Shown: positions 631 through 62,746 of the stretch, piece after piece
How the letters are laid out: every line of letters begins with the position of its first letter
Numbering within the stretch: position 1 is the stretch's first letter
NCBI GenBank assembly: GCA_934754425.1
Contig: CAKVIN010000010.1
Span: forward strand, 15,075 to 79,074
Reading direction: 5' to 3'
Length of the DNA stretch: 64,000 nucleotides
Source: an uncultured Candidatus Melainabacteria bacterium
GTDB taxonomy: Bacteria; Cyanobacteriota; Vampirovibrionia; Gastranaerophilales; Gastranaerophilaceae
Translations under genes and position numbers: made by a program
Notes under the pieces: generated by a model
Databases searched by the model: none
Told to the model about the DNA's origin: nothing
What the model saw: only the letters and a program-made list of their open reading frames with translations

Positions 631-638
631 TTTCTTGC

Positions 639-665
639 AAAAAAAAACTTCTCTTAAATGAGAAG
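639..665 (-). terminator. Rho-independent terminator oriented for the minus strand
   Basis: Hairpin CTTCTC-ttaaat-GAGAAG (648..665) is followed on the minus strand by nine U (647..639). Read on the plus strand it has no U tail. Confidence 0.6.
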
Positions 666-720
666 CTAGGAAAATTAGTTAGGAAGGGATTTAGGAATTA
701 AATCTTTATTTACATCTTAC
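639..720 (-). ncRNA. Candidate ~80-nt small RNA (promoter-like module to terminator, no ORF), CU-rich
   Basis: The bipartite module at 721..780 points leftward in the same orientation as the copies that precede real genes. Here it is followed only by ~55 nt and then the minus-strand terminator. The predicted RNA carries three UUCCUA(A/G) motifs (anti-Shine-Dalgarno-like). Confidence 0.3.
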
Positions 721-780
721 ATATATATAAAGTATATAATAAAATCCGAATTTCAGTTTTTATTTCTTTTGTTACAAAAG
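721..780 (-). promoter_or_regulatory. Bipartite intergenic module: ACTTTATATA box (rc of 721..735) plus perfect 15-bp palindrome CTTTTGTTACAAAAG (766..780)
   Basis: Same two elements, order and ~30-35 nt spacing as at 12886..12934, 26803..26860, 27602..27660, 37573..37627 and 46547..46604. Confidence 0.45.
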
Positions 781-858
781 TTTACATACTGATTAAAATT
801 TTTTTCGTTTTCACTAAATTGGTTGATTTCTATGATAAATTTGGGGTATAAATATAAT

Positions 859-1728: not shown

Positions 1729-2608
1729 ATTAACTGCAATTTGTCTTTTATTTACTTTAACGCTTTCTCCGGTCTTAGCAAATGTAACACTGGATGATGT
1801 TAACACTCCGAAAGACTTATTTTTCCGTCTTGGCACAACCGATACTCCGGAAAACAAAATAGATGTCACTGTAAAAGAAGAAGTCAAACCTCAGTTTGCC
1901 AAAGAAGATAAATATTATAGCGAAGGTTTAACTTATGCTGATTTAAGTATAAAAAAAATGGCGCTAGAGGTTTCAAAATCAGTAGAAATAGATTACAACG
2001 AAATGATGGAGGACTTATCTTTACTTTGGCAAGGTGCGGCAACAAAGAGTGATACAATAAAATTTGCCATTTATAAATTATCAAATCCGGATAAAGATAA
2101 ACCGGATTCTAGTGCTGTTAAAAAAGTTTTAACAACAATAGCAGGCATGTCAACATTTTTAGGTGCAGGTACAGGGAATCCGATTCTTGCAAGTGCGGCT
2201 TTGATTGGTGGAAATACACTTGGGATTATGTCACAAGATACAAAAGCTCTTAATTACAAATATACACAAGTAACTGATGCGGATATGATAATACTTGTAA
2301 GAAAAATTGATGAATTGCAGCAAAAAGTCGTTGATATGTATTATGATTATATTACAGCAAGACAGCTTTATGATATGACAACAGAAATGGTTCAACAAAG
2401 ACACGAGGTTTATAAAAGGTCTCAAAATCTTACCAAAGAAGTAATCTTAATAACGGATACTTTTTACAGAGAAGCTCTTGATGAACAGGTAAAAGCACGT
2501 GGTAGCTTTTTTGAAAAACGCTCAAGACTGGAACAACTTGTAGGTAATGATATTTTTAGACAATTTGAAGCTAATGTTGATGCCAGATATACAAAAGACA
2601 AGTCTTAA
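1715..2608 (+). CDS. Secreted protein of unknown function (paralog B)
   Basis: ATG 1715 is preceded by AAAGGAGAA and opens a signal peptide (MIKNRLTAICLLFTLTLSPVLA). It overlaps the upstream paralog by 14 nt and has the same block order as 859..1728. Confidence 0.6.
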   Translation: MIKNRLTAICLLFTLTLSPVLANVTLDDVNTPKDLFFRLGTTDTPENKIDVTVKEEVKPQFAKEDKYYSEGLTYADLSIKKMALEVSKSVEIDYNEMMEDLSLLWQGAATKSDTIKFAIYKLSNPDKDKPDSSAVKKVLTTIAGMSTFLGAGTGNPILASAALIGGNTLGIMSQDTKALNYKYTQVTDADMIILVRKIDELQQKVVDMYYDYITARQLYDMTTEMVQQRHEVYKRSQNLTKEVILITDTFYREALDEQVKARGSFFEKRSRLEQLVGNDIFRQFEANVDARYTKDKS

Positions 2609-2666: not shown

Positions 2667-4340
2667 ATGTTTAGCAGAAATTTAGAATTTATAGGGAATA
2701 TTGCATTAAAATCACGTTTAACAAATATCAGCTTAGAAGAATCTAAAAAAGATATGTCATATTGTATGACAACATCAAATGATTATTTATTAATGAAAAA
2801 TGACATTCCGCTTGATGACATAAACAATCCACGCCAAGCGATAAAAAGTATGTTAAAAAACACTATCAAATCACAAATGGGGCAAAACGATATTATTATT
2901 ACATTTGGGATTGGATTATGTTATCTGCTTGATGAAGTTTACAACACTTACCCATCAAAGATTTTTGTTTACGAACCGGATATCAACATATTGCATTTTG
3001 TTCTAAATAATGTAGACATTTCTGAACACTTAGCAAGTGGACGTGTTTTTATTACAAATGATATAGATGAATTAATGAAAAAACTTGCTGCAACATACAT
3101 TTCCAAAGATAAAGTAGAAGTTGTATATCTAAAAAATTACGCAATTATAAGAAGCCAAGAACTACTGGAATTAACTCAAAAAGTATATGATACCTGCAGA
3201 ACAAAAATGGTAGATATTAATACAATCAAGAAATTTTCTAAGGTTTGGCTTTTAAACACACTAAAAAATATAAACTCAATAAATTCTTCAACAGCATACA
3301 AATTATCAGATTTAAAGGATAAGTTTAGCGGTCAAACAGCTTTAATACTTGCAGCTGGACCATCATTATCAGAAAACATTGATAACATAAAAGCTAATCG
3401 TGATAAGTATGTTATTTTTGCAGTGAATAAAGTTTTACGAGTTCTTGAAAACAATGGCATTACTCCAGATTTTGCAGTATGTTTAGATGGATTGCACGTA
3501 AATGATTCTCTAACAGGACTTGAGAATTTTTGTTCTAAGATGAATTGCATTATGGATTTGAAAACAGATAATGTAATTTTTTCAAAAAAATTCAGACGAG
3601 TTTTTGTATCGTTTTCTAAAAACGATACTGTAATAAAAAAACTTGCAGAACATAATAAAATTTTCACATATGAAAATGGCGGAACTGCAACATCCATGGC
3701 TTTTGTTTCCGCAGTCAAAATGGGATTCAGCAAAATTATATTTTCCGGTCTTGACTTAGCATTCAAGGGAGATATAATTTATTCCACCGGAGAAGTTTTA
3801 AATAAAACATCCGAAAACCAAATGAAAGTAGCCAACGCACAAAAAAACATTGTTAAAATAAAATCAGTCACAGGTGAGCTTGTTAATACAAGAGATGATT
3901 ATGCTGCATTTGTTCAACATTTTGAAACATTAATCAAAGACCTTGGTGCAAAAGAAGTGTATAATACAACTTCATTTGGTGCAGCAATAGAAGGTATGAA
4001 AAATGTTGCATTTAATGATATACATTTATTATTTGCTTCAACCGGCACTCCATTTATTTTAGGAGAAGTTCAACCTTTTAAAATAGAAACAGAAGCTTGG
4101 GCAAAAGATGAATTAATATTAATAAATAATATTATATCATTCTTATCAAAAGGAATTTTTTCACCTGCACTTGTTTCTTCTATTGTAAAAAGTCCATTAG
4201 TATATCAATACATGCAAGCTGACGTTTTAAAAATTTTACAAGAAAAAATGCAACCGGATAATTCTGAAGAATTTATTCAGAAAACTAAAAATGCTGTTAA
4301 AGATGTCGTTGAAAATTTACAAAAAAATAGATTAATCTAG
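2667..4340 (+). CDS. Motility-accessory-factor (Maf)-like glycosyltransferase, DUF115/MptE-like central domain
   Basis: 557 aa. Central segment GQTALILAAGPSLSENIDNIKANRDKYVIFAVNKVLRVLENNGITPDFAVCLDG...IIFSGLDLAF matches my recollection of the DUF115 fold of Campylobacter/Helicobacter Maf proteins. Confidence 0.6.
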   Translation: MFSRNLEFIGNIALKSRLTNISLEESKKDMSYCMTTSNDYLLMKNDIPLDDINNPRQAIKSMLKNTIKSQMGQNDIIITFGIGLCYLLDEVYNTYPSKIFVYEPDINILHFVLNNVDISEHLASGRVFITNDIDELMKKLAATYISKDKVEVVYLKNYAIIRSQELLELTQKVYDTCRTKMVDINTIKKFSKVWLLNTLKNINSINSSTAYKLSDLKDKFSGQTALILAAGPSLSENIDNIKANRDKYVIFAVNKVLRVLENNGITPDFAVCLDGLHVNDSLTGLENFCSKMNCIMDLKTDNVIFSKKFRRVFVSFSKNDTVIKKLAEHNKIFTYENGGTATSMAFVSAVKMGFSKIIFSGLDLAFKGDIIYSTGEVLNKTSENQMKVANAQKNIVKIKSVTGELVNTRDDYAAFVQHFETLIKDLGAKEVYNTTSFGAAIEGMKNVAFNDIHLLFASTGTPFILGEVQPFKIETEAWAKDELILINNIISFLSKGIFSPALVSSIVKSPLVYQYMQADVLKILQEKMQPDNSEEFIQKTKNAVKDVVENLQKNRLI

Positions 4341-7359: not shown

Positions 7360-7700
7360 TAACTCCTATACGATCTAAGCCTACATGTATTATAAAACAT
7401 GTAAACCACAAAAATTGCTTTTTTTCAGTTTTAGTTTTTACATTTGTTAACATATTATTTTGAACCAGTCCTATTTCCAGTGATACTATTGAAAATAAAT
7501 CGATTTTTATAATATTCGTCTTTTGCTATATTATTTATCGGCATTTTTTTCAAAAACTTTAGCTCTTTTCGGTTATAATACCTAATTTCGTTACAAAAAT
7601 TTACAACATTACTTAATGTTTTTATTAATGGGTTATTTAAAAATATATCAAGCATTATTCTGAAAAAAGTGCGTCCTTGCATAATATCTCTCTTGTTGAT

Positions 7701-7857
7701 GTCGTTAAGTCGTTAAGTCGTTAAGTTCATTTAATTCGCTTCGCTCATGATTTTAATTGTTTTTTTTATAATGTAAAATGAAGTAATTTTGTCGTTAAGT
7801 CGTTAGGTCTTTAAGTCGTTAAGTTCGTTTAATTCGCTTCGCTCATAGTTTAAATTG
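7701..7857. repeat. Two direct copies (7701..7759, 7791..7857) of the octamer element (GTCGTTAA)n-GTTCrTTTAATTCGCTTCGCTCATrrTTTAAATTG
   Basis: Directly visible 59- and 67-nt copies. The second has one additional 8-mer. Confidence 0.8.
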
Positions 7858-17778: not shown

Positions 17779-19067
17779 TTTGTTAACGGTAACACTCCGG
17801 AAGAATAAGTAAATTCATCATCATAATATTTATAACTCACATTACTTTCCGTTTTTTTGAATTCTAAATAAACAACTTTTGCCGGACGAATAATATTAGA
17901 ATACTTTATTTTTCTAATTTGTCCACATCTGCAATCTTTACCAAAAGCTAATTGAGTAAACCAATTTGCGTAAAACAATTGAACAACCCCGGGAAGAATT
18001 GGAAACCCTTCAAAATGTCCCTTAAAAAAGTTACTATTATTTATAAACGCAATTTTAAAACAAGCAAAATCTTTATATATATTTCTTTCCAAAATTAGTG
18101 GCAAAGAGAGATTTCTATTCATACATTCATTAATAAATTTTTTATCAATTTTTCCATTTTCTTTTTTAGGTATTTCATCAAAAAACATCCATTTTTGAGG
18201 AACAATTTCAAACTTATTTTTTAATTCAGATTTTAGAATTTTTGTAAGACTAAATTTGTCATTTTGTAATAAAAATTCTTTTCCTTTATCTGACAAAACT
18301 CCTAACGCAGCGAGTTTTGTTTCAAATTCAAAACAAAACGCTTCATTAATAAAATCCGATTTCTTGATTTCATTTTCTAAATAAAAAGCATCAATTCTTT
18401 TTTCCTGAATTTTTAAAACTTTTCCACAACGCTCTAAAAACTCGATTTCATTACCAATTTGTTTTATTCTATCTTCAATTATTACAGGACTTTTTTTAGA
18501 ATATTTTGTTTCAATTTTAGTGTTCTCTTTATTAGATTCTAAAATTTTAATTCCTTTAAAAATTTTTAGTCTATTGTGCGGATTAGTTCTATAACCAATT
18601 ACACCTGTTTCTGTGCTTCCATAAATCTCAATAACCTTATCAGCAATCGTTTGAGCAAATTCAAAAGTTTGTAATTCAAGTTTCGCACCAGCTGAGATAA
18701 TTATCTTAGGGTTTTTGACAGGATGCGAGTCATACTTACGCATAGCTTCTAAAAAAGACGGAGTTGTTATAAGAACAGCATTTTCGAAATTTATATCTTC
18801 CGGATAATGAATTCTTTGAACATTAGTGATATTTTCTGTCACATAAGGTAACATATAATGAAAAGTAAACCCAAATAAGTGTTTTGGAGTTGTTGTAGAT
18901 ATAAACTCAAAACCTTTTCCAATTTCTAATTCTGCAGCAATATCTTTTGCTTCTATTTCCATATTGTCAAAAGTTTTTTCTACAGACACACCATCAGAAA
19001 CAGTTCCGCTTGTATAGAATGAAATAATACCTTTTTCTTTAAAATCTTCAACAAGCTTTTCTATCAT
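17757..19067 (-). CDS. Fusion protein: short acyl-adenylate (AMP-binding)-like domain plus FabA/FabZ-like dehydratase
   Basis: N-terminal part has FYTSGT and YGSTETG (adenylate-forming motifs). C-terminal part has GHFEGFPILPGVVQ (FabZ signature). Confidence 0.6.
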   Translation of the reverse strand: MIEKLVEDFKEKGIISFYTSGTVSDGVSVEKTFDNMEIEAKDIAAELEIGKGFEFISTTTPKHLFGFTFHYMLPYVTENITNVQRIHYPEDINFENAVLITTPSFLEAMRKYDSHPVKNPKIIISAGAKLELQTFEFAQTIADKVIEIYGSTETGVIGYRTNPHNRLKIFKGIKILESNKENTKIETKYSKKSPVIIEDRIKQIGNEIEFLERCGKVLKIQEKRIDAFYLENEIKKSDFINEAFCFEFETKLAALGVLSDKGKEFLLQNDKFSLTKILKSELKNKFEIVPQKWMFFDEIPKKENGKIDKKFINECMNRNLSLPLILERNIYKDFACFKIAFINNSNFFKGHFEGFPILPGVVQLFYANWFTQLAFGKDCRCGQIRKIKYSNIIRPAKVVYLEFKKTESNVSYKYYDDEFTYSSGVLPLTNCFVEKI

Positions 19068-20791: not shown

Positions 20792-21736
20792 ATGAGAGAT
20801 AATAAATTAATGATAGTTGTACCTTGCTATAATGAAGAAGAAATTTTAGCATATACAATCAGTGAATTACAAATTCTTCTTGATATTATGATAGAAGATG
20901 GACTAATATCCAACGATAGTGGAATTTGTTTTGTTAATGACGGTAGTTGTGATAAAACTCAAGAAATAATTAATGATATTTGCAAAAAAGATATCAGATT
21001 TTCTTGTGTAAAATTAGCCGGAAATTTTGGACATCAAAAAGCTTTAATTGCCGGCATGTATTCAGTAAAAGCAGACATGATAGTTACAATTGATGCAGAT
21101 TTACAAGACGATACAAACGCTATTATTCAGATGGTAAAAAAATATCAAGATGGATATGATATTGTTTATGGTGTCAGAGATAAGCGTAATACAGATACTT
21201 TATTTAAAAAATATACTGCTCTCGGTTTTTACAAAGTTATGCAAGCTCTTGGGGTAAACATTATTTTTAATCATGCCGATTTTAGACTTTTAAGTAAAAA
21301 AGCTGTTGAAAGACTTAAAGAATATAAAGAAAAAACTTTATTTTTGCGAGCTCTAATTCCATTACTTGGATTAAAATCTACAAGCGTTTATTATGACAGA
21401 TGCGAAAGAATGGCAGGAGAATCAAAATATCCACTTCTAAAAATGATATCTTTTGCTTGGTGCGGAATTACAAGTTTTTCAATATTTCCGCTAAGATTAA
21501 TTACGCTAACAGGTATTGGTATATTTTCCATTAGTTTATTGCTTTTATTATATTCATTAATCAGTTATTTGAGCGGTAATACAATAAAAGGATGGACTTC
21601 TTTAATGTTTGCGTGTGCATTTTTTAATGGAATAATTATCCTTTCTCTTGGTATAATAGGAGAGTACCTGAGCAAAGTATTTACGGAAGTTAAGGGTAGA
21701 CCTTTATATCAAATAGAAGAAACGATTAATCTATGA
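20792..21736 (+). CDS. GT2 polyprenyl-phosphate glycosyltransferase (ArnC/GtrB-like)
   Basis: IVVPCYNEEE, DGSCDKT and DADLQDD motifs, plus two C-terminal TM helices. Confidence 0.8.
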   Translation: MRDNKLMIVVPCYNEEEILAYTISELQILLDIMIEDGLISNDSGICFVNDGSCDKTQEIINDICKKDIRFSCVKLAGNFGHQKALIAGMYSVKADMIVTIDADLQDDTNAIIQMVKKYQDGYDIVYGVRDKRNTDTLFKKYTALGFYKVMQALGVNIIFNHADFRLLSKKAVERLKEYKEKTLFLRALIPLLGLKSTSVYYDRCERMAGESKYPLLKMISFAWCGITSFSIFPLRLITLTGIGIFSISLLLLLYSLISYLSGNTIKGWTSLMFACAFFNGIIILSLGIIGEYLSKVFTEVKGRPLYQIEETINL

Positions 21737-22413
21737 ACCATAAAATATTAATAGTAGATGATGAAAATGATATTTGCGAACTTATTGAAATGTGCCTTCA
21801 TTCAAATGGTTTCAAAAATACAAGAATCGCAAATGATGGTAAAACAGCATTAATAATTGCAGAAAAATGGCTACCAGATTTAATTCTTTTGGATGTAATG
21901 CTTCCGATAATGAGTGGAAAAGAAGTTTGCAAAGCACTTAAAAATAATGAAATAACTGAAAATATTCCAATAATTATGCTCACCGCAAAAAGTAGTGAAC
22001 ACGATATTATTGAAGGCTTAGATATTGGTGCGAATGATTATATAACAAAACCATTCAGCAATAAAATTCTGGTAGCACGAATAAAAGCTTTGTTGCGTAC
22101 TGTAAAAGAATTTGGGATAATAAAATTCAGAGGAATACAAATAGATTTAAATAAGCGTATTGTAGCAATAGATTCTAAAATCATAAACTTAACATTCAGT
22201 GAATTTGAAATACTAAAAACTCTTACTAAATATCCGGAACGAGTGTATTCTCGCTCTGAATTAATTTCTATTATTCGTGGTGAAGCCGGATACGATATAA
22301 CCGAACGAGTTATTGATTTTCAGATTGTTAATCTAAGAAAAAAGCTGGGCGATTATGGTTCTTATATAGAAACTGTAAGAGGAGTTGGATATAAATTAAG
22401 AGGGGAAGAATGA
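21733..22413 (+). CDS. OmpR/PhoB-family response regulator
   Basis: Receiver domain (ILIVDDE, DLILLDVMLP, TAKS) plus winged-helix output (VRGVGYKL). Overlaps both neighbours by 4 nt. Confidence 0.9.
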   Translation: MNHKILIVDDENDICELIEMCLHSNGFKNTRIANDGKTALIIAEKWLPDLILLDVMLPIMSGKEVCKALKNNEITENIPIIMLTAKSSEHDIIEGLDIGANDYITKPFSNKILVARIKALLRTVKEFGIIKFRGIQIDLNKRIVAIDSKIINLTFSEFEILKTLTKYPERVYSRSELISIIRGEAGYDITERVIDFQIVNLRKKLGDYGSYIETVRGVGYKLRGEE

Positions 22414-23762
22414 AAAAACGTGACAAAATTTTAATATGGAATATCCTACTAATCGCATTTATTATTGTTTCACTAATATTTCTCGCAAAAAATCAACTTG
22501 AGCAATTTAAAAAAGCGTATATTTCTGAAGAAATTGAAGAAATTACGTCACTAGCTAAACAAGTTAGTTGGGCAATCAAACCCATTCTTGAAAAACATGA
22601 TTATAAAGAACTTAATCAATATGCAGCTTTATTTATACACAGCGATACCGGATTTACGGTTTGGGCTCCGGATGGAAATATTATTTGTGACACAAGAAGT
22701 TCTGACGTAAATAATATACCTAAAAATTATTTAGAAGAAAGAACTTTTACAACGCCTCAGATGATATATCATTCTATGCCATTAAAAATAAAAAATGAAA
22801 CATACACATTAACACTTTCTGCGACAATTAATCATATCAATAAAATACTTACTAAATCAAAAAAATATATTTTAATAAGTATAATTGTTGGTGCATTTAT
22901 AATTTTTATTCTGGCATGTTATATTTTTAGTATTTACAAATCTTTTAATCGACTTCAAAACAGTGCAATAAAAATATCAGCAGGAGATTTAAACACTGAC
23001 ATATTTATTCCAAAAGGTGGAATGTTATATGAACTGGCTTTGGCTTTAAGCAAAATGTCTAATCGTTTGAAATCTCAAATCTTAGAATTGCGAAAATTAG
23101 AAGATTTTAGAAGTGAATTTATAGCAAATGTATCACACGAAGTTAAAACTCCATTAACCGGTATTTTATCTGCTGTAGAACTTTTATCAGAAGAAATTTT
23201 GGATAAAACTCCACAAACTGAAAAATGTTTGAATATTTTAGAAAAACAGTCAAAACGCTTAAACTCTCTGGTTCAAGATATTTTAACATTATCAGAACTT
23301 GAAAAACCGCAAGAAATCAAATTAATCAAAACAAATCCTGCAATCGCTATTAATAACAGTATTATTTTATGTTCTGTTTCCGATATAAAAATAAATACTA
23401 AACTTAAAGATATTTACATTTACGGTGACAATGAATTGCTGGAACAAGCTATTACAAACATTTTGACAAACGCAATTAAATATAGTCAATCAGAAACTAT
23501 TGATATTGAATTAACAGCTTCAAACGGTTTTGCACAAATTATAATTCAAGATTATGGAATTGGTATTCCTCAAGAACATTTGCCAAGATTGTTTGAACAT
23601 TTCTACCGTGTCGATAAAGCTCGGAGTAGAAATCTGGGCGGAACCGGACTTGGCTTATCCATTGTGCAAAACATCATCAAATTACATAACGGCAAAATTA
23701 CCGTTACTTCTGATAACGGATGTAGATTTGTTATTGAAATTCCACTAATTGGAAATGATTAA
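22410..23762 (+). CDS. Sensor histidine kinase (HAMP-HisKA-HATPase)
   Basis: Two TM helices, H-box SHEVKTPLT, N-box TNAIKYS and G-boxes DYGIGI / GGTGLGLSIV. Confidence 0.9.
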   Translation: MKKRDKILIWNILLIAFIIVSLIFLAKNQLEQFKKAYISEEIEEITSLAKQVSWAIKPILEKHDYKELNQYAALFIHSDTGFTVWAPDGNIICDTRSSDVNNIPKNYLEERTFTTPQMIYHSMPLKIKNETYTLTLSATINHINKILTKSKKYILISIIVGAFIIFILACYIFSIYKSFNRLQNSAIKISAGDLNTDIFIPKGGMLYELALALSKMSNRLKSQILELRKLEDFRSEFIANVSHEVKTPLTGILSAVELLSEEILDKTPQTEKCLNILEKQSKRLNSLVQDILTLSELEKPQEIKLIKTNPAIAINNSIILCSVSDIKINTKLKDIYIYGDNELLEQAITNILTNAIKYSQSETIDIELTASNGFAQIIIQDYGIGIPQEHLPRLFEHFYRVDKARSRNLGGTGLGLSIVQNIIKLHNGKITVTSDNGCRFVIEIPLIGND

Positions 23763-26034: not shown

Positions 26035-26781
26035 TTATACATTTGTTTCTTCTTTTTCTTTTTTGTTTAATTCTCCATTAGAATCCCCGTCAGAAATATT
26101 TATATCCAACGCTATATCAGTATTTTTATTAGAAAAAATATTTTGTGAATTTATTGCAATATCGACAGTGCCAAGAAGGTTATCGGCTGATTCTACAGCA
26201 GCATTTGCAATATTTTCATACGATTGCAGAACTGATTTTTCATCTACAGAACGATAATATGTATGCCCTTTATGATCTGCATTTCTAAATTCTTCACTTA
26301 CTTCAATTGTTTTGTTTGCGTACTCTGTAGAAATAGTTGTTTGTGCACTAAATATATTATTTAAACTACTCTTTTTAGAATTTATTACATCTCCTAGAGT
26401 ATCCGCTTTGCTTTGTGCTTCCGCATTCAAATCGGTAATATATTCAGCATCAATTTCCAATTCCATTTGTTCTGATTTTGTTATAGTTCCGTTTTTTTGT
26501 TTTTCTTGCAATACTTTAATTCGATTTTGCATTTCTTCAATTTTATCTTGAGTAGAGTTTTGCAATTGTTCCATTTCTTCTTGAAAGTCATTAATTTCCA
26601 AAATATATTCTTGAGCATCATCAATATCTGATGTAAGTTGCTCATTCATTTTATCGCAAGTGCTTTTTAAACTATTGGTTTGTAACCATAGCTTAGTAGT
26701 TTCACTAATTATTTTGGGAGTATTATCCCATTTGCTCATATAATTATCGATTGATAATGCTTTTGACCAATCAAAACTCAT
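26035..26781 (-). CDS. Coiled-coil protein, unknown function (paralog of 26877..27578)
   Basis: 248 aa. Shares DIDDAQEYILEINDFQEEMEQLQ, STEYANKTIEVS and NAAVESADNLLG blocks with the upstream ORF. Has its own bipartite upstream module. Confidence 0.55.
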   Translation of the reverse strand: MSFDWSKALSIDNYMSKWDNTPKIISETTKLWLQTNSLKSTCDKMNEQLTSDIDDAQEYILEINDFQEEMEQLQNSTQDKIEEMQNRIKVLQEKQKNGTITKSEQMELEIDAEYITDLNAEAQSKADTLGDVINSKKSSLNNIFSAQTTISTEYANKTIEVSEEFRNADHKGHTYYRSVDEKSVLQSYENIANAAVESADNLLGTVDIAINSQNIFSNKNTDIALDINISDGDSNGELNKKEKEETNV

Positions 26782-26802
26782 TAGTTTATCCTCATATTAC
26801 AC

Positions 26803-26860
26803 TTATATAAAGTATTTTGAAGATAATTGATTTCAATAAATTTTTATTCTGTTACAAAAA
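26803..26860 (-). promoter_or_regulatory. Bipartite module (ACTTTATATAAG box; TTTTTGTAACAGA palindrome)
   Basis: The box ends 20 nt before ATG 26781, with GAGGA SD in between. The palindrome lies ~33 nt upstream of the box. Confidence 0.45.
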
Positions 26861-26876
26861 TTAATCTTATTACATT

Positions 26877-27578
26877 TTATTTTTTAGTTTGAGTTCTTGT
26901 TTTAATTTTATCTTCGATATCACTTGCGGTAGAAACTTGTTCTAATAAATTATTTCCTGATTCTACTGCTTTTTTACCGGCTTCTCTTTCTGCTGATTTA
27001 TTCCAACCACCAAATGTTTTTCTCCAGAAAGATTTTCTCTTATCTTTCATTTCTGATAGCGGTGTTCCTTTTTCTACGGCAGTATTTCCATAATCAGTAG
27101 CAATTTCAGCCTTTGAACGGTGTCCTTTTGCTTTTTCTCCTGTATCTTTGACTTTAGAATTTATGTCTTCAATTTTTGTATTTGTATCACTTGTTAAACC
27201 GGCGATTTCATCATCAATTAATTTAACCTTGTCTTCGTCTTCTTCAGATAAACCGTCATCTCCTGCGGCAGCCAAAATTTTATTTTTTTCAGCTTCTTGT
27301 GCCTTAATCTTAGCTTCCAATTCTTGTTGTAAAGCTTCAACTTCTTTTAATTCAGTATCTATTTCAACAAAATATTCATTTTGGTCATCTATAATTTGGT
27401 CGTAACTTTCAGACATAGCTTTACACATATTTGTAAGTGTATTAGCTTTTTGTATATCACTTTGCACAAAGCCAATAAATCCGGCAAAACCAACAGCATA
27501 GTCGCCTGCAAGTGCTCCATTATTCCAAACATCTGCAGCTTTTACATTTTGTCCGATTTTCCAAACATCAGCCATCAT
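26877..27578 (-). CDS. Coiled-coil protein, unknown function (paralog of 26035..26781)
   Basis: 233 aa. N-terminal hydrophobic Gly-rich stretch (GALAGDYAVGFAGFIGFV), then IIDDQNEYFVEIDTELKEVEALQ, ATDYGNTAVEKG and KKAVESGNNLLE. Confidence 0.55.
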   Translation of the reverse strand: MMADVWKIGQNVKAADVWNNGALAGDYAVGFAGFIGFVQSDIQKANTLTNMCKAMSESYDQIIDDQNEYFVEIDTELKEVEALQQELEAKIKAQEAEKNKILAAAGDDGLSEEDEDKVKLIDDEIAGLTSDTNTKIEDINSKVKDTGEKAKGHRSKAEIATDYGNTAVEKGTPLSEMKDKRKSFWRKTFGGWNKSAEREAGKKAVESGNNLLEQVSTASDIEDKIKTRTQTKK

Positions 27579-27601
27579 TAATATCCTTGTCTTAATCTTA
27601 C

Positions 27602-27660
27602 AAATATATAAAGTTTTTTTAAAAATATGGATTTCATAAACAATAATTTTCGTTACAAAA
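27602..27660 (-). promoter_or_regulatory. Bipartite module (AACTTTATATATTTG box; TTTTGTAACGAAA palindrome)
   Basis: The box ends ~22 nt before ATG 27578. The palindrome also overlaps the -35 of the divergent deoB promoter. Confidence 0.45.
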
Positions 27661-27679
27661 CTTAAATATGTGGTATAAT
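27652..27679 (+). promoter_or_regulatory. deoB promoter GTTACA-N16-(TGg)TATAAT
   Basis: Extended -10 TGGTATAAT at 27671..27679, about 48 nt before the SD-led ATG 27728. Confidence 0.5.
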
Positions 27680-30957: not shown

Positions 30958-31356
30958 ATGAAAATTTTAGATATTACATCTTTTGAAAAAGCATTGACAA
31001 GCCTAGAATCGATTTTAAACAGATACGAAAAAGACAATTTCGATATTGATATTAGGGATGCTGTTATACAAAGATTTGAATACACATATTCACTTGCATT
31101 AAAAATGATAATACGCTTTATTAATATGCAATCACCGGAAGTATTACCGGATATGACGTTTAATGAAGCAATACGCAAAGCTAATAAACTTGGTTTACTT
31201 AAAAACAATTTAGAAAAATGGACCGAATATAGGCAAAAACGCAATGCAACATCGCATACTTATGATGAAAAAGTTGCAACTGAAGTCTTATCAGTAATTC
31301 CTGATTTTAAAGATGAAGCTGAATTTTTATTAGCACAATTAAAGAAAAATTTATGA
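30958..31356 (+). CDS. HEPN-domain protein, HI0074-type nucleotidyltransferase substrate-binding family (TA toxin candidate), copy 1
   Basis: 132 aa with IQRFEYTYSLALK and RNATSH (Rx4H) motifs. Confidence 0.8.
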   Translation: MKILDITSFEKALTSLESILNRYEKDNFDIDIRDAVIQRFEYTYSLALKMIIRFINMQSPEVLPDMTFNEAIRKANKLGLLKNNLEKWTEYRQKRNATSHTYDEKVATEVLSVIPDFKDEAEFLLAQLKKNL

Positions 31357-31640
31357 TTGATTTAGAAAAAAAATATCTTGATTTTATACAACAAACAATC
31401 GCAAACTATTTGAGAGATTATAAACTCTATATTTTTGGTTCTAGAGCTAAAAATAACGCAAAAGAATATTCTGATATAGATCTTGCAATTGATTCAACAG
31501 AATTAACCCCAGAAATAAAATCCAAAATTGAAGCTTTTTTTGAAGCTTCAACTCTTCCGTACGAAGTAGATATCGTTGATTTAAACAACGTCACTGAAAA
31601 TTTTAAACAATTGATAAAAGAAGACTTGATAAAAATATAA
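31353..31640 (+). CDS. Minimal nucleotidyltransferase (MNT, HI0073-like; antitoxin candidate), copy 1
   Basis: 95 aa with FGSRAKNNAKEYSDIDLAI (GSx10-12DxD). ATGA overlap with the HEPN gene. Confidence 0.8.
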   Translation: MIDLEKKYLDFIQQTIANYLRDYKLYIFGSRAKNNAKEYSDIDLAIDSTELTPEIKSKIEAFFEASTLPYEVDIVDLNNVTENFKQLIKEDLIKI

Positions 31641-33439: not shown

Positions 33440-33468
33440 TTGAAATTGGTTAAAAAGTGCTTTATACT
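33440..33468 (+). promoter_or_regulatory. Sigma70-type promoter TTGAAA-N17-TATACT upstream of ssrA
   Basis: Good hexamers and spacing. Implies a ~115-nt precursor leader ahead of the mature 5' end. Confidence 0.4.
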
Positions 33469-33590
33469 GTATGTACGAACATTGAAAGTAATATTGGAAT
33501 GAATTGGAAGTTATTGTCAGGCAGTGCCTGACCTACTATTTGCTTTGTGAAGGGTAGCTGGAGCCGTTCATTCCTAAAAAACAACAACAT

Positions 33591-33991
33591 GGGGATGTAC
33601 TGGTTTTGACGCTGTGATTGGTAGATCCGGGTTGCGAGTGCGGGCGCTGTTCCCGCTTATCAACGAGCAAATTAAATTAAATGCTACAGATAATGTTGTA
33701 GTTGCTGATTTCTCTAGAGCTGCTGCTCGTAGAGCTGCATAACAGACTTTGCAGTCAGCCTCTGATACAATCCAGCTTGCCGATTGTATTGGACCACTAT
33801 GCAAGCTGCAGTGTACAGATGATGGTATGTGCATTAAGTTAACCATTGGAGGTTAGGCTTCCGCAAAAAGTCTTTGACTTAGTTCAGGTTTTGTAACTTT
33901 CCGTATTAAGTTGAGCCAATAAGTTACTACACTCGTAGATATTCGTTTTTATCCACAATGGACGTGGGTTCGACTCCCACCATCTCCACCA
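33591..33991 (+). ncRNA. ssrA: tmRNA (SsrA)
   Basis: 5' GGGGATGTACTGGTTTTGACG and 3' GGACGTGGGTTCGACTCCCACCATCTCCACCA form the tRNA-like domain. An internal tag frame starts at GCT 33683 (92 nt in) and ends at TAA 33740..33742. The region is G+C-rich relative to its flanks. Confidence 0.92.
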
Positions 33992-37203: not shown

Positions 37204-37446
37204 CTATGCAGCTTCTGTAGATAGATATTTGGCTGATTTAGCTACAACACCATAGCAAACCATTGTTAAATGATTATTTAATGCCAACATTGTTCTAAAA
37301 TTATTTGCGGAACAATTCATTGCACTCATCATATCATCAGCTGAAACTCTTGATTGTAAAGCTCCATCCTCGTGATTATCAACTTTTTCTTGTGCATATT
37401 TTTCTACTAATAATTTGTCAATAAAATCTCTTGCGCCAATTGCCAT
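37204..37446 (-). CDS. Small protein (80 aa), unknown function
   Basis: AGGAG lies 9 nt upstream of the ATG. Preceded by a bipartite module and a ~125-nt leader. Confidence 0.5.
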   Translation of the reverse strand: MAIGARDFIDKLLVEKYAQEKVDNHEDGALQSRVSADDMMSAMNCSANNFRTMLALNNHLTMVCYGVVAKSAKYLSTEAA

Positions 37447-37572
37447 AATAAATACTCCTATATAATCTATTTTCGCTCTCTTTAGACAAAGTTTACTAAA
37501 CCCATAAAGAATTATCTTTTGGACTTTTTGTCGTTTGGGGTTTTGCTCTCTCTATCCTTGTTATTTCTTATG

Positions 37573-37627
37573 TATATATAAAGTATTTATCGAATAAAAA
37601 ATTGCCTTTTTTCTTTTGTTTTGTTAA
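37573..37627 (-). promoter_or_regulatory. Bipartite module (ACTTTATATATACA box; degenerate palindrome CTTAACAAAACAAAAG)
   Basis: Lies just downstream of the terminator of 37721..39478 and ~125 nt upstream of ATG 37446. Confidence 0.35.
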
Positions 37628-37666
37628 GTTTCATTAAGACAGCTTCTAAAAGTCGCTTATAATAAC

Positions 37667-39563: not shown

Positions 39564-39735
39564 ATTTTTATTGCCAATTTGTTACAAAATATTAATCAAC
39601 ATATATTATATTTTAACTCATATATTACGCTTTGTAAAGATTTTTATATATTTACGTTATAAATCATGTAAATAGTGGAATTAACAAAGTATATAGCAAT
39701 ATTTTTGTTACAAAAATTTACAAAGGAGTTTAAAA

Positions 39736-40050: not shown

Positions 40051-40248
40051 AACAAATAATATTTATTTTTGCCTAAGTGGTTTATTTTTTACAATTTCGG
40101 ATTGTAAATTTATATTGTTCTTGATATACTTCATTTGTGTATTGTGCAGTGTGTATTCATTGTAAATAAATGTAAAGTTCATGCTCAAATATTAGCAAAA
40201 AATATTTTTTTTAGAACTTTAAATATATAGTTACCAGATGGGGTTTGT

Positions 40249-46333: not shown

Positions 46334-46495
46334 CTATGATTGATAAGCGCCGGCTTGTTGTGCATAAGTCCAAGCTGACATTTTTTTCAACTTATCATTT
46401 TCAGTTTCTTTTGGAACTGCATTATTGTGTTCCATATTAAACCAGACCGGTTTACTACCTGATGTATGGCCAATACCACTTGCTTTAGGGTCCAT
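46334..46495 (-). CDS. Small protein (53 aa), unknown function; not in the ORF track
   Basis: AAAAAAGGAGG lies 6 nt upstream of the ATG. Product MDPKASGIGHTSGSKPVWFNMEHNNAVPKETENDKLKKMSAWTYAQQAGAYQS. A bipartite-like module lies upstream. Confidence 0.55.
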   Translation of the reverse strand: MDPKASGIGHTSGSKPVWFNMEHNNAVPKETENDKLKKMSAWTYAQQAGAYQS

Positions 46496-46546
46496 AGTTG
46501 CCTCCTTTTTTATTTAATATCTTCGTTTTTTTCGTACATCTATACA

Positions 46547-46604
46547 TTAATAAAGTATTTTATTTTGTTTGAATTTCATATTTTGTTTTTTTCTTTACAA
46601 ATAT
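46547..46604 (-). promoter_or_regulatory. Bipartite-like module (ACTTTATTAATG box; weak TATTTGTAAAG element)
   Basis: Same order and spacing as the stronger copies, about 50 nt upstream of ATG 46495. Confidence 0.3.
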
Positions 46605-46667
46605 TTACACAAGTCCTCAAATTATTTCTCATTTAATCTATAATATAAATACACAAAGGAGATTATT

Positions 46668-49669: not shown

Positions 49670-50503
49670 TTAATGAATCATATAAGTTGCATTGTTGCCA
49701 AGAACTTTGTCTTTAAGGCGTTTAAAACCTTTTCCATAAATATATTTCATCTGTTCAACTAGATTTTCTTCTACGTCTATCAAATACATGTCATGAACAA
49801 TAAATTCTTTGATTATAAAAACAATACCTTTATTTTTTGTCCAAATTATATTTGTATCAGAAATATCATTTTTTAACGAAGAAATTTTTCCAATGATACC
49901 TTCACTATCATCTGCAGCAATTATAATCATTCTACCGCCGAGTGAAAGTTCGATATCTCTTGCAAAAGCGTGCTCAAACACCAGCCCGAATCTGGAAGTA
50001 AAATTATCATATCCTACAATTCTAATTTCTACATTCCTATTGTAAGCATTCAAAAGTTCTTTTTCAAAAATTTTATAATCCTGAGACCATATTTCCATAT
50101 ATATTTCACGTTTTGCATTTTGAATAACTTCAATAATTTTATCTTGAATATTTTTAATTCCATTAACAGTTATAATTGGCTCATTATAATTATCTTTTAC
50201 TTCCGGAAGATGTTTATCAAGATAATTAACAGTAGAATTCATCTTTTTTAAATAGGCTGATGTCAATTGTTTTGGTTTTATTGGAGTATAAGTTACAGGT
50301 TTTGTATTTGCAGACACAACAATATTTTTTTCTTCTAACACTTTTAATGTATCATAAGTTCTGGATTGAGGAATATTTGTAAGCTTTGCTACCTCATATC
50401 CAGTTGCCGGAAAATTTTTCAATAAAGCAATATAAACTTTTGCTTCATAAGTATTAAAGCCAATTTCTTTTAATTTTTCGACTAAATCTGCCATTAAACA
50501 CAC
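49670..50503 (-). CDS. TrmB-family transcriptional regulator
   Basis: N-terminal wHTH LGFNTYEAKVYIALLKNFPATGYEVAKLTNIPQSRTYDTLKVLEEKNIV plus a C-terminal TrmB-type domain. Alternative start at ATG 50494. Confidence 0.8.
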   Translation of the reverse strand: MCLMADLVEKLKEIGFNTYEAKVYIALLKNFPATGYEVAKLTNIPQSRTYDTLKVLEEKNIVVSANTKPVTYTPIKPKQLTSAYLKKMNSTVNYLDKHLPEVKDNYNEPIITVNGIKNIQDKIIEVIQNAKREIYMEIWSQDYKIFEKELLNAYNRNVEIRIVGYDNFTSRFGLVFEHAFARDIELSLGGRMIIIAADDSEGIIGKISSLKNDISDTNIIWTKNKGIVFIIKEFIVHDMYLIDVEENLVEQMKYIYGKGFKRLKDKVLGNNATYMIH

Positions 50504-50527: not shown

Positions 50528-51598
50528 TTATACAACCATATCATTAAAACTTCTAGAATCATCATAATTAAACATATGTATAAATGTATAAAGCATTTTT
50601 GCAGAAAACTTTTTTGTACCAACTTCTAACATTGTTCTCAAAGCTTCTTTGTTATTTGTTACAAGATTATGCGTCCTATTAAATGCTAAATTATCATAAT
50701 AATTAGTAACATTAATTATCTGACTGTATTCTGAAATATAATCACTTGATAAACCTTGCGGATATCCGGAACCATCATTATTCTCGTGATGTTCTAAAGC
50801 CACTTTTGCAATTTCTTCTGACAAACCGAATTCATCTTTTATCATTTTATACCCAAGTATCGGATGATTCTTTACTTCTTCTTCACTCATTGTGAGTAAT
50901 GCCTGTGAGCCCGGAAGATTTATTTTAATCTTTCCTATATCATGCAATAGCCCTGACAATATTACTTGGTCAACTGAAACAGTCGGATATTCAAGCTTTT
51001 TGGCTATCAAACCAGACATAGTCGCAACATTGAGCGGATGACAAAGTTCATACTCTCCTAAAAACCTTATTCTGGAACCTTTTCCGGATTTACCGATTTT
51101 TTTATAAACTTCGTTTTTTAATATCCCAACAAGAGTATTTAATTTGAATAACGCTTCTTCATAATATCCTTGCAATAATAAATCCAAAATTCTCTTATAA
51201 AAATACTTAATCCTGACTTGTGTTTCTGTTTTCACATAAGCATCTTTATTAATAACCGTTTCAAAATCCGTAGAATCAATTGATTCGTATGTAAAATTCA
51301 ACAATTGAGTAGCCGCAGGAGTACCTTCTACTTGTTTAGTATTTTTTTCATTATCATCATTATTATTAAACTCTTCAGTATAAATTTTTATATGATTTTT
51401 TAACATTATCAACTTGCCAGGAGTTAATACTTCTCCTGCTTCCAAAATCTTGTTTTTAGATTCCGTATACAAATCGAATGGTAAAACTTTATAACTACTT
51501 AATTCTTTTGTTGTAACAATTCTCATATTTAGGATTATAGCACTTTTTTTATTATTTTCATACTGTATATGTTTTATTTTTATTAAACCATATTCCAA
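50528..51598 (-). CDS. HD-GYP-domain phosphodiesterase (c-di-GMP)
   Basis: HDIGK and HHENNDGSGYPQG motifs. The listed start overlaps the upstream gene by 16 nt. Alternative ATG at 51526. Confidence 0.8.
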   Translation of the reverse strand: MEYGLIKIKHIQYENNKKSAIILNMRIVTTKELSSYKVLPFDLYTESKNKILEAGEVLTPGKLIMLKNHIKIYTEEFNNNDDNEKNTKQVEGTPAATQLLNFTYESIDSTDFETVINKDAYVKTETQVRIKYFYKRILDLLLQGYYEEALFKLNTLVGILKNEVYKKIGKSGKGSRIRFLGEYELCHPLNVATMSGLIAKKLEYPTVSVDQVILSGLLHDIGKIKINLPGSQALLTMSEEEVKNHPILGYKMIKDEFGLSEEIAKVALEHHENNDGSGYPQGLSSDYISEYSQIINVTNYYDNLAFNRTHNLVTNNKEALRTMLEVGTKKFSAKMLYTFIHMFNYDDSRSFNDMVV

Positions 51599-52720: not shown

Positions 52721-53014
52721 TTATATTTTATACAAATCCTTTTCTATTATTTTCTTAAATTCTGCTTTTAAATTATTCAAATCTACAATATCAATTTTAT
52801 ACGGTATCGTTGATTCTTCAAATTGCGCTTTTAATTGCAACATTTTTTCTATTGGTATTTTATCAGAACTTTTAAGTGCCACATCTACATCCGAATATTC
52901 TAAAGCTTTTCCTTGCGTTCTTGAACCAAAAAAATAAATTTCTACATCAGGAATTAATGCCAATATTTTATCCCTTATGAAGTTTACGTATTTTAGTTCT
53001 AAGTCTAATTCCAT
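52721..53014 (-). CDS. Minimal nucleotidyltransferase (MNT), copy 2
   Basis: FFGSRTQGKALEYSDVDVAL motif. Abuts/overlaps the HEPN gene. Confidence 0.8.
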   Translation of the reverse strand: MELDLELKYVNFIRDKILALIPDVEIYFFGSRTQGKALEYSDVDVALKSSDKIPIEKMLQLKAQFEESTIPYKIDIVDLNNLKAEFKKIIEKDLYKI

Positions 53015-53424
53015 TAGTCAAACTCCTTTAATCGAGTTATCATAAAAGAAATTTCTTTACTAAAATCCGGAATTATACTAAGAACTTGAAGTGCAATTTC
53101 TTCATCATAAGTATGAGAAGTCATATTTCTCATTTCTCTAAATACAGTCCATTTTTCAAGATTAGAGCTTAACAAATTTAACTGAGATGCGGTTCTAATC
53201 ATTTCATTAAAAGACATTTGATTAACTTCTTCCAACACAAAAGCACGCTCTATAAAATACTTGCGTAAAGTTTTTAATGCTATTGAATACGCAAATTCAA
53301 AACGCTGTATAACAGAATCTCGAACAGCTTCATCGTCAGATTCCTTTTCATATCTTAACAACATTTCTTTTAATTTTTTCTCAGCATTTTCTAATGCCGA
53401 TATATTCAATGTTCCTTGTTGCAT
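53014..53424 (-). CDS. HEPN-domain protein (HI0074 family), copy 2
   Basis: IQRFEFAYSIALK and RNMTSH (Rx4H) motifs. About 45% identical by eye to copy 1. Confidence 0.8.
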   Translation of the reverse strand: MQQGTLNISALENAEKKLKEMLLRYEKESDDEAVRDSVIQRFEFAYSIALKTLRKYFIERAFVLEEVNQMSFNEMIRTASQLNLLSSNLEKWTVFREMRNMTSHTYDEEIALQVLSIIPDFSKEISFMITRLKEFD

Positions 53425-56929: not shown

Positions 56930-57003
56930 ATAAATACAAGTTTTTATTGTTATTTGACAGCAAATGTTGTATTATACAATAAGATAAATTAGAGAGGAAT
57001 AGC

Positions 57004-62722: not shown

Positions 62723-62746
62723 GATAATTCCTTTTTATAAATTTAT

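Follow-up and report, generated by a model that had tools for sequence, protein, structure and literature searches.

The Bacillus subtilis sigma factor sigma-W, a member of the extracytoplasmic function (ECF, group 4) factors, reads promoters of the form TGAAAC-N16-CGTA. Long spacers occur in the Spo0A-dependent spoIIG promoter (22 bp) and in MerR-type promoters (19–20 bp). T7-like promoters have a -17 to +5 layout and a purine start, and the phage-type polymerases of plant organelles use promoters with a short core, CRTA in mitochondria and YRTA in plastids. The pilA1 promoter of Synechocystis, which depends on the group 3 sigma factor SigF, carries TAGGC at -32 and GGTAA(G) at -12 in an AG-rich context (PMC2532724). 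The present analysis concerns a module of about 75 bases upstream of orphan genes in a 64,000-nt stretch (hereafter the window) of contig CAKVIN010000010.1, from an uncultured Candidatus Melainabacteria bacterium of the order Gastranaerophilales. The module is probably a specific, factor-dependent promoter class that defines a regulon (probability about 0.85).

Gastranaerophilales belong to the Vampirovibrionia, the non-photosynthetic sister group of the cyanobacteria; they have not been cultured, are frequent in herbivores and in the guts of people from non-industrialised populations, and we know of no work on their transcription control. The module brings dozens of genes that defy annotation, together with two new families of small RNAs, into one set in more than 100 species, and opens a testable way to study how an uncultured lineage of the human gut is regulated and which orphan genes it has. 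It can be used to scan for further members, provides exact predicted start sites, and could serve as DNA bait for a sigma factor or regulator. That such a regulon of orphan genes exists had been proposed in a first-pass annotation of the window; the proposal is supported, and the observation behind it is real and better supported than sequence alone allowed.

Architecture of the module and its copies in the window

The first-pass annotation described a bipartite arrangement, a palindrome followed by an A/T-rich box, at six intergenic sites. The order upstream element, box, TGTAAGA-like motif and gene is indeed present at all six. Alignment of these sites with copies from elsewhere shows three blocks in fixed register: Block 1, with the consensus (T)GTWAAS-TTTTGTAAC-AAA; Block 2, TG(A/C)AAT(T), 15 nt after Block 1; and Block 3, (A)CTTTATATATA-YRTAAG, 16 nt after Block 2. 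The shared architecture thus holds, and Block 2, seen at the six sites as TGAAATT or GGCAATT between the palindrome and the box, had been overlooked. The palindrome exists as well, as part of the longer Block 1, and is absent from one subclass (e.g., at 37567–37637). In what follows, module coordinates are counted from the A of ACTTTATATA (the A of ACTTT), which is position 0. The copies in the window are as follows.

27597..27667, minus strand: focal copy, upstream of the 233-aa gene, supported by its score and by blocks kept in 14 orthologous promoters; Block 1 27649–27667 (ATTTAAGTTTTGTAACGAA), Block 2 27630–27636 (TGAAATC), Block 3 27597–27618 (AAAAACTTTATATATTTGTAAG)
27597–27601, minus strand: predicted start site of the focal copy
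26796..26866, minus strand: copy upstream of the 248-aa gene, occupying the 95-nt gap that separates two tandem paralogues; Block 1 26848–26866, Block 2 26829–26835 (TGAAATC), Block 3 26796–26817 (AAATACTTTATATAAGTGTAAT)
716..786, minus strand: best-scoring copy, preceding a small RNA rather than an open reading frame (ORF); Block 1 768–786 (TGTAAACTTTTGTAACAAA), Block 2 749–755 (TGAAATT), Block 3 716–737 (ATATACTTTATATATATGTAAG)
37567..37637, minus strand: subclass-B copy, upstream of the 80-aa gene with a leader of 120 nt; CTTAA-type repeats for Block 1, Block 2 37600–37606 (GGCAATT), Block 3 37567–37588 (AAATACTTTATATATACATAAG)
46539..46609, minus strand: divergent copy, upstream of the 53-aa gene; Block 1 46591–46609 (TGTAAATATTTGTAAAGAA), Block 2 46572–46578 (TGAAATT), Block 3 46539–46560 (AAATACTTTATTAATGTATAGA)
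12880..12953, minus strand: marginal copy, upstream of the CHAP-domain gene (GGCAAT-N16-ACTTTATATATATAGGTAATA)

The sequence ACTTTATATA occurs six times in the window against 0.52 expected, a number reached in none of 100 shuffles, and five of the six occurrences fall at the sites listed, all on the minus strand. All six copies lie on this strand though genes lie on both, which may be due to chance or to co-orientation with replication. The copies were scored with a matrix built from 123 module copies in other genomes, with shuffled windows as the null. Full-module scores were 69.9 (copy at 733), 54.0 (27614), 52.5 (26813), 38.2 (46556) and 29.5 (37584), i.e., 1.3–3 times the best shuffled window (maximum about 22). 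A core-only score, restricted to Blocks 2 and 3 (null 95th percentile 16.5, null maximum 22.7), gave 41.8 at 733, 35.6 at 27614, 33.9 at 26813 and 29.5 at 37584; the value at 46556 (20.4) is above the null 95th percentile and that of the CHAP copy at 12900 (14.8) below it. The copies at 716–786, 26796–26866, 27597–27667 and 37567–37637 are therefore real beyond doubt and the copy at 46539–46609 is significant, so that five of the six sites stand above shuffled controls, whereas the CHAP copy is marginal on its sequence alone. Four weaker relatives that had been proposed (7389–7452, 10770–10822, 40215–40230 and 39578–39588) do not rise above these controls.

Despite its low core score, the CHAP copy preserves GCAAT-N16-ACTTT. 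Its Block 1 (TGTAAAC..TTGTTACAAAA) lies about 10 bp, or one helical turn, closer than usual, as it also does in copies from three other loci (L071, L090 and L007), and its leader is very short, with the ATG 8 nt past GGTAATA. At another locus (L081) the module precedes proteins whose low-complexity N-terminus begins much like that of the CHAP protein (MTFTNY...). In subclass B, TTCTTAAC/TCTTAAT repeats stand in for Block 1, Block 2 has the form AAAAAGGCAATTTTT and Block 3 ends in CATAAG; the relaxed scan described below found this form at seven further loci (L019, L039, L049, L060, L063, L103 and L125). Module copies at two other loci (L010 and L038) precede proteins starting MAIGAV.. or MAVGAI.., similar to the N-terminus of the 80-aa protein.

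Sub-threshold core matches were seen on the plus strand at 18070, inside the opposite-strand gene 17757–19067, and at 62730; both are probably due to chance. The former reads GCAATTT-N16-TCTTTATATATAT without YRTAAG and could also be an antisense promoter.

Conservation in gut Gastranaerophilales

A strict pattern, TTTGTAAN-N36-40-ACTTTATATA-N2-4-KGTAA, was run against 185,579 species genomes (one genome per species) and gave at least 120 matches in at least about 101 assemblies. Among the matches listed, the assemblies come from human, ruminant, horse, rabbit, mouse and chicken guts, all those that are named are metagenome-assembled genomes of Gastranaerophilales, Melainabacteria, gut "Cyanobacteria" or "Vampirovibrio", and every match carries Block 2, which the pattern did not force. 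The module is thus clade-specific and is kept in more than 100 uncultured gut Gastranaerophilales/Melainabacteria species.

Other positions that the pattern left free are conserved as well in the 123 copies. In and around Block 2 these are t at -22, G at -21 (91%), A or C at -20 (A in 62%, the GCAATT form in 37%), A at -19 (100%), A at -18 (98%), T at -17 (94%) and T at -16 (82%). Further downstream they are A-T/A-A-T at -4 to -1, T at 10 (82%), A at 11 (95%) and G at 17 (86%), and T-n-T-W-A-A-S is found immediately upstream of TTTTGTAAC. Conservation is contiguous from -4 to +17 and then drops abruptly.

Applied to viral contigs, the same pattern found nine matches representing about three distinct sequences, none with the unforced conserved features, which is the picture expected of chance matches. 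A phage origin of the module was considered and rejected, since Block 2 is missing from all of these.

The module is rare, as a relaxed scan of the 0.9 Mb of DNA surrounding the seed copies added only 24. In all 24, and in the copies of the window, the offset between Block 2 and ACTTT is 0, and the distance from ACTTT to YRTAAG varies by 0–3 nt.

An orthologue footprint that used no DNA pattern was obtained from 14 upstream regions of the 233-aa gene (protein identity 32–78%), for which 13 orthologous loci had been collected by a metagenome protein scan (five loci) and by exact-protein look-ups. The gene is nearly always flanked by a divergent phosphopentomutase gene and nusB. Near-invariant in the footprint are TGTAAC, TGAAAT 15 nt downstream of it, CTT(T) 16–17 nt further on, T-R-TAAG, and a leader TTAAGATGAGGATAT; within ACTTT, only CTT is near-invariant. 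In 12 of the 14 promoters, 16 nt separate Blocks 2 and 3. The spacers between the blocks diverge freely, and blocks that are kept while spacers drift imply purifying selection on the module at the focal coordinates.

These data bear on the idea of a mobile or repetitive extragenic element, of the type of a miniature inverted-repeat transposable element (MITE) or a repetitive extragenic palindrome (REP), which would lie upstream of genes by chance. Several copies per genome and the short palindrome in Block 1 would fit such an element. The copies lack terminal inverted repeats and target duplications, though, and within one genome they are similar only in the blocks, with unrelated spacers between them; their orientation and their distance to the start codon or small RNA are constant, and orthologous positions are retained across species. 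The idea is already contradicted by these observations and is next to impossible.

Orphan genes and small RNAs downstream of the module

The module is found strictly upstream of co-oriented genes or small RNAs, and most copies have a ribosome-binding site and an ATG about 19–26 nt beyond G17. The genes behind the copies in the window are listed here.

26877..27578, minus strand: 233-aa orphan gene behind the focal copy, with 52 relatives, none of them named
26035..26781, minus strand: 248-aa orphan gene, in tandem with its paralogue, the 233-aa gene (27% identical across 183 aa, E 3e-9)
37204..37446, minus strand: 80-aa orphan gene behind the subclass-B copy
46334..46495, minus strand: 53-aa orphan gene with a strong ribosome-binding site (AAAGGAGG), behind the divergent copy
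12050..12874, minus strand: gene of a 274-aa protein, with a CHAP domain at the C-terminus and a low-complexity N-terminus rich in N, F and S

That the linked products are orphans was borne out beyond the window: none of 57 distinct downstream proteins from other genomes has a Pfam family, against a background of about 73% (according to the description of the search tool), and among the products in the window only the CHAP domain has a Pfam match. No significant Pfam family was found for the 248-aa protein. Recurring orphan families include 143-aa proteins starting MANTAALLGNLL..., 143-aa proteins starting MAIANLHETLL..., 99-aa proteins starting MSTNINANVLK..., 57-aa proteins, 118-aa Cys-rich proteins, and coiled-coil or Gly-rich proteins of 230–410 aa. 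The suggestion that the products are mostly non-cytoplasmic or structural fared less well, as inspection by eye showed no evident signal peptides and an AlphaFold model of the 233-aa family is a soluble helical bundle (pLDDT 85). Compared with the Protein Data Bank (PDB), this model retrieved only generic helical bundles (best E 0.04) and no informative neighbour, and a PDB sequence search with the family profile returned only coiled-coil noise. The identical 233-aa protein occurs on contigs from Hadza and other human-gut metagenomes; together with the named genomes that share the module, this places the window in an uncultured gut member of the Vampirovibrionia.

About one third of all copies are followed by no ORF and instead by one of two conserved small RNAs with intrinsic terminators. 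The copy at 721..780 had been described as followed only by a terminator; no ORF is present and the terminator is there, and with it a conserved candidate small RNA, here sRNA-1.

637..720, minus strand: candidate sRNA-1, about 80 nt, starting in the GTAAG of the module, with a strong intrinsic terminator at 667..646 plus a T-run

The invariant core of sRNA-1, AAUCCCUUCCUAA, is single-stranded and complementary to ribosome-binding regions of the AGGA/GGAAGG type. Homologues with the same promoter, the CU-rich core and the terminator are present in at least nine other Gastranaerophilales genomes, and no match to the Rfam 15 covariance models was found even at E<=1. The second family, sRNA-2 (about 105–145 nt), is absent from the window. 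It has a CA-rich 5' part, an invariant core ACACACUAACCUU, two hairpins and a terminator; compensatory variants are seen in the hairpin GAGGAAUU/AAUUCC, and the hairpins are evident by eye and were not recovered by RNAalifold on a MAFFT alignment. Rfam 15 gave no match to sRNA-2 at the gathering score, only noise. It follows a module copy at L014, L041, L044, L051, L053, L057, L059, L061, L082, L083, L093, L099, L102, L114, L117 and L124.

Small RNAs that are complementary to ribosome-binding regions and share a promoter with their possible targets suggest, speculatively, a post-transcriptional brake on the regulon. Some module-driven leaders (L007, L013, L017, L118 and others) contain two or three copies of AAGGTTA, which is complementary to UAACCUU in sRNA-2; two or more copies were found in 4 of 65 module leaders vs. 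4 of 689 upstream regions of other ORFs. This complementarity may reflect pairing between a small RNA and mRNAs inside one regulon.

Module copies together with sRNA-2 or a similar CA-rich non-coding sequence were also found on contigs L014 (labelled Brachyspira), L044, L068 and L126 (labelled Muribaculaceae). These are probably Melainabacteria contigs that were mis-binned or mislabelled in public genome collections.

Contrast with housekeeping promoters

Housekeeping genes use ordinary promoters, as the first-pass annotation had held. In the window this is seen at the tmRNA gene.

33440..33475, plus strand: ordinary sigma-A promoter of the tmRNA gene, TTGAAA-N17-TATACT, given for contrast
33591–33991, plus strand: tmRNA gene, tag peptide ATDNVVVADFSRAAARRAA

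The promoters of seven tRNA genes from related loci likewise combine a TTGACA-like -35, a spacer of 16–17 nt and TAnnnT, without the module; the -35 of the tRNA-Cys gene of the clade is TTGCAA. Right after the -35 hexamer of the tmRNA promoter, CTTTATACTGTATGTA faintly echoes Block 3.

Tested against the sigma-A pattern, the module conforms in its -35-like part: Block 2, (T)TGAAA or (T)TGCAA, resembles TTGACA, and the same hexamers occur at the tmRNA and tRNA-Cys genes. No TAnnnT is present 16–18 bp from Block 2 in the consensus, the nearest comparable hexamer being TATATA, 21 bp away, and the canonical 17-bp distance is taken by ACTTTA. The box had been proposed as an A/T-rich -10 element. 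Its consensus ACTTTATATATATG alternates T and A, however, and an alternating TATATATA offers no A(-11)/T(-7) pair (A-N3-T) to the housekeeping sigma factor, so the assignment is not supported in that form.

A generic strong promoter of an AT-rich organism, or chance AT-rich similarity, would make the regulon illusory. The genome has only about 31% G+C, and TTTTGTAACA has 51 matches in the window with at most one mismatch, vs. 23 expected. Against this, tmRNA and tRNA genes use a different, canonical promoter, full-module scores far exceed the shuffled best, the module is restricted to one clade and conserved before orthologues, the downstream genes are exclusively orphans, and the chance matches on viral contigs lack Block 2. 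A generic origin is already contradicted by these data and is barely conceivable; the canonical tmRNA and tRNA promoters and the rarity of the module in the 0.9 Mb scanned instead bear out a specific promoter architecture.

Proposed promoter geometry and candidate readers

Position and orientation suggest that the module acts as a promoter; the start site and the kind of factor proposed below are read from the same features. An alternative sigma factor would be the most likely reader, at a little under even chances. Block 2, tG(A/C)AAT(T), would then be the -35 element, (A)CTTTA, 16 nt past it, the -10 element, and the AT-only run TATATAT the melted region. Transcription would begin 12–16 nt after the A of ACTTT, where YRTAAG has its pyrimidine-purine step, which is TG or, in subclass B, CA. 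With a start at +12/+13 of the module, Block 2 would fall at -35 to -30, ACTTTA at -13 to -8 and Block 1 at -66 to -47. Block 1, in which an A-tract follows a pair of TGTAA-like boxes spaced by one helical turn, would be an auxiliary upstream element, either UP-like or the site of a subclass-specific regulator. The regulon so controlled would comprise fast-evolving orphan proteins (coiled-coil/helical or low-complexity) and at least two small RNA families.

The ribosome-binding sites of several genes lie at +24 to +30 and the ATG of the CHAP gene at +26, so that the start is confined to between about +5 and +23, and a start at position 13 places Block 2 at -35 to -30 without a free parameter. 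The spacing between Block 2 and ACTTT is rigid and that between ACTTT and YRTAAG looser, which is the behaviour of a -35/-10 pair with a flexible start distance. Block 1 may be exchanged, shifted by 10 bp or lost with the core unchanged, as expected of an auxiliary element. The palindrome had been placed at -45 to -50 as the site of a dimeric regulator; with the likely start it lies at about -59 to -47, and it is dispensable or displaced in some subclasses. Candidate sigma factors in these genomes are a 304-aa RpoD-like protein, a FliA/WhiG factor and an ECF factor.

Several observations speak against a sigma factor as the reader. To our knowledge, CTTTA matches the -10 motif of no characterised sigma family. 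TATATAT and (G/A)TAAG (-7 to +5 in the sigma model) are conserved beyond the normal needs of a sigma factor. No sigma or HTH family was found among the 57 downstream proteins, which sample part of each genome, and with no sigma gene downstream the autoregulation typical of ECF factors is not seen. In two of the 14 orthologous promoters, the spacing between Blocks 2 and 3 is 14 and 17 nt. The likeness of TGTAAC, TGAAAT and TGTAAG suggests one DNA-binding protein with multiple sites, not a sigma factor. In divergent copies (TA)n becomes TAATAT, TATTAT, TATATT or TATTTT, 5–7 nt before AAG, and such TAnnnT hexamers would fit a sigma-A-like -10.

The last point also fits a promoter of the housekeeping or a group-2 sigma factor that depends on an activator. 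Here TTGAAA would be -35-like and TATATA a weak -10-like element about 21 bp away, a distance that RNA polymerase would not span on its own, and a clade-specific DNA-binding protein (e.g., a response regulator) binding the TG(T/A)AA boxes and/or ACTTT would rescue the over-long spacer. An activator-dependent promoter had been proposed earlier on the ground that the -35 region is not conserved. That claim was mistaken, as tG(A/C)AATT lies 16 nt upstream of ACTTT in every copy, and with a conserved -35-like block at fixed distance the main argument for activator dependence falls. In the modified form given here it remains a live rival, possible though doubtful. Block 2 is like genuine -35 elements of the clade (TTGAAA of tmRNA, TTGCAA of tRNA-Cys), the variant copies always have a TAnnnT hexamer 5–7 nt before AAG, and a TG-AA box is repeated at module positions of about -53, -43, -22 and +12. 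The direct repeats of Block 1 with a 10-bp period, and the TTCTTAAC/TCTTAAT repeats of subclass B with an 11-bp period, would be typical of OmpR/PhoB-type sites, and the promoter of the 91/110-aa unit combines Block 2 with a canonical TATAAT that replaces the box. The majority form (TA)n, however, has A and not T at every possible -7, which normally rules out sigma-A; between Block 2 and ACTTT, where a spacer-binding activator would sit, the sequence is not conserved; Block 1 can be absent or shifted by 10 bp without change in the core; and no regulator gene is consistently linked to the copies. The window itself contains no sigma gene and, as regulators, only an OmpR-type two-component pair (21733–23762) and a TrmB-type regulator (49670–50503), neither of them evidently linked to it.

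The promoter of the 91/110-aa unit (about 7380–7450, minus strand) reads TGTTAAC-AAA-TGTAAAA, AAAAAGCAATTTTT, 16 nt, TTTTATAATACATGTAGG. It is a hybrid in which Block 2 is followed by canonical TATAAT at the place of the module's CTTTATATA, and it may be an evolutionary intermediate between both promoter types. Nearby, just upstream of a 75-aa ORF (7455–7682), ACTTAACG(AC) occurs four times in the region 7690–7800 (approximate, minus strand), including a tandem array of three with a period of 8 bp; its CTTAAC core resembles the repeats that substitute for Block 1 in subclass B.

A different division of the module takes Blocks 1 and 2 as the promoter (-35 TTGTAA, 17 nt, -10 GAAATT) and Block 3 as an element of the RNA 5' end (+9 to +26), e.g., one recognised by an RNA-binding protein, by an RNase or by a small RNA. 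The spacing of TTGTAA-N17-GAAATT is right, A is present at hexamer position 2 in 62% of copies and T at position 6 in 82%, and in most mRNAs the ribosome-binding site directly follows Block 3. Yet 37% of copies have GCAATT, which lacks the essential A, and subclass B and other copies have no Block 1 or have it 10 bp closer and still keep Blocks 2 and 3. Block 3, which is pure A/T without predicted structure, looks more like a DNA melting region than an RNA motif. This division is very unlikely.

A transcription machine other than a sigma-70-family holoenzyme that this lineage has retained, e.g., a domesticated single-subunit RNA polymerase of phage type, reading the 22-nt core ATATACTTTATATATAT|GTAAG with a YRTA-type start, would account for the contiguous conservation from -4 to +17 with its sharp end, and for the core TGTA, CATA or TATA followed by AG(AG). 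If true, free-living bacteria would have an equivalent of the phage-type polymerases of organelles, with their YRTA/CRTA promoters. Blocks 1 and 2 in fixed helical register are not expected for such an enzyme, though, and YRTA is low in information. A tblastn search of 1.1 Mb of Melainabacteria DNA found no T7-like polymerase, which is a weak test, as this amounts to about half a genome spread over about 100 genomes. This reading is highly improbable. A sigma factor with a previously unseen -10 specificity (CTTT) could be a milder form of novelty.

Other features of the window

A second tandem orphan pair (823–2608, plus strand; 301 and 328 aa, 28% identity, E 7e-13) adjoins a 557-aa MptE-like gene (2667–4340). 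The MptE-like domain is the one found in Maf-type flagellin glycosyltransferases, and the pair may be glycosylated. The 572-aa orphan at 8999–10717 (minus strand) resembles a 377-aa protein of L029 and a protein of L109 at the N-terminus (MGMAASQARLL...) and the C-terminus only. The same plan, in which the ends are conserved and the middle varies, is seen again in several families behind the module and is typical of proteins that form filaments. Pairs of NTP_transf_2/Polbeta and NTase_sub_bind genes at 30958–31640 (plus strand) and 52721–53424 (minus strand) are probably MNT-HEPN-like toxin-antitoxin systems. Two adjacent PilZ-domain proteins (219 and 213 aa; 56270–57645, plus strand) and a nearby HD-domain protein (50528–51598) have no evident link to the module; these domains are tied to cyclic-di-GMP signalling in other organisms, and the proteins may be components of such signalling here.

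Comparison with known promoter systems

Compared with sigma-70/sigma-A promoters, the module is similar in Block 2, which is like their -35 element, and in an A/T-rich -10 region. It differs in use: the housekeeping RNAs of the clade have a different, canonical promoter, and the 57 module-driven proteins are all orphans. Promoters of the spoIIG/Spo0A and MerR types share with it -35- and -10-like hexamers about 21 bp apart and, upstream, short recurring boxes; the module spacer has no dyad operator, and its -10-like hexamer lacks T at -7. Block 1 (TGTWAAS-TTT-TGTAAC) contains no NtcA/CRP-type dyad (GTA-N8-TAC or TGTGA-N6-TCACA) near -41.5, and its TGTWAA/TGTAAC repeats 10 bp apart, like the 11-bp repeats of subclass B, would be candidate OmpR/PhoB-type response-regulator sites, which consist of tandem direct repeats with a period of 10–11 bp.

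The sigma-28 (FliA) motif TAAA-N15-GCCGATAA is absent from the module consensus, and no conserved GG or GC of the sigma-54 type (GG at -24, GC at -12, 10 nt apart) is present in the module. FliA/sigma-28 was rejected as the reader on separate grounds: flagellin-like genes in L008 and L059 have no module upstream. The nearest phylogenetic precedent of a non-canonical promoter is that of cyanobacterial SigF. The module's (T/G)GTAAG (TGTAAG, or GGTAAT before the CHAP gene) is almost the same as the SigF element GGTAAG, but there is no TAGGC-like element 15 nt upstream (-8 to -4 are not conserved) and the context is A/T-only. If GTAAG stood at -12, moreover, transcription would begin within or past the ribosome-binding site in several genes and past the ATG in the CHAP gene, and a SigF-type reading has little support.

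Phage-type and organellar promoters resemble the module in a contiguous stretch of about 22 nt that ends just past a purine and in the YRTA(AG) core; they are confined to about -17 to +6, unlike the module with its conserved upstream Blocks 1 and 2.

ECF promoters of the sigma-W type have the same plan of two short elements at a fixed 16 nt, and TGAAAT of the module is one base off TGAAAC. Like theirs, its regulon is discrete and non-housekeeping, with a promoter unlike the sigma-A consensus of the same organism, and it conforms to the rigid ECF spacing (16–17 nt) both in the relaxed-scan and window copies and in most orthologues. It differs from them in a -35 element that ends in AAT rather than AAC (T at -17 in 94%), a -10 element CTTTA rather than CGT(A/C), 12 further conserved bases after the -10, the lack of a sigma gene downstream, and a regulon that is probably large (tens of copies per genome). 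None of the papers searched gives an account of the motif or of a promoter analysis in Melainabacteria. With the features of sigma-A, ECF, SigF, sigma-28 and sigma-54 promoters each failing to match in full and no account in those papers, the module appears to be a previously undescribed, clade-specific promoter type; should an alternative sigma that reads a CTTT-type -10 prove to be its factor, sigma specificities would span a wider range than is known.

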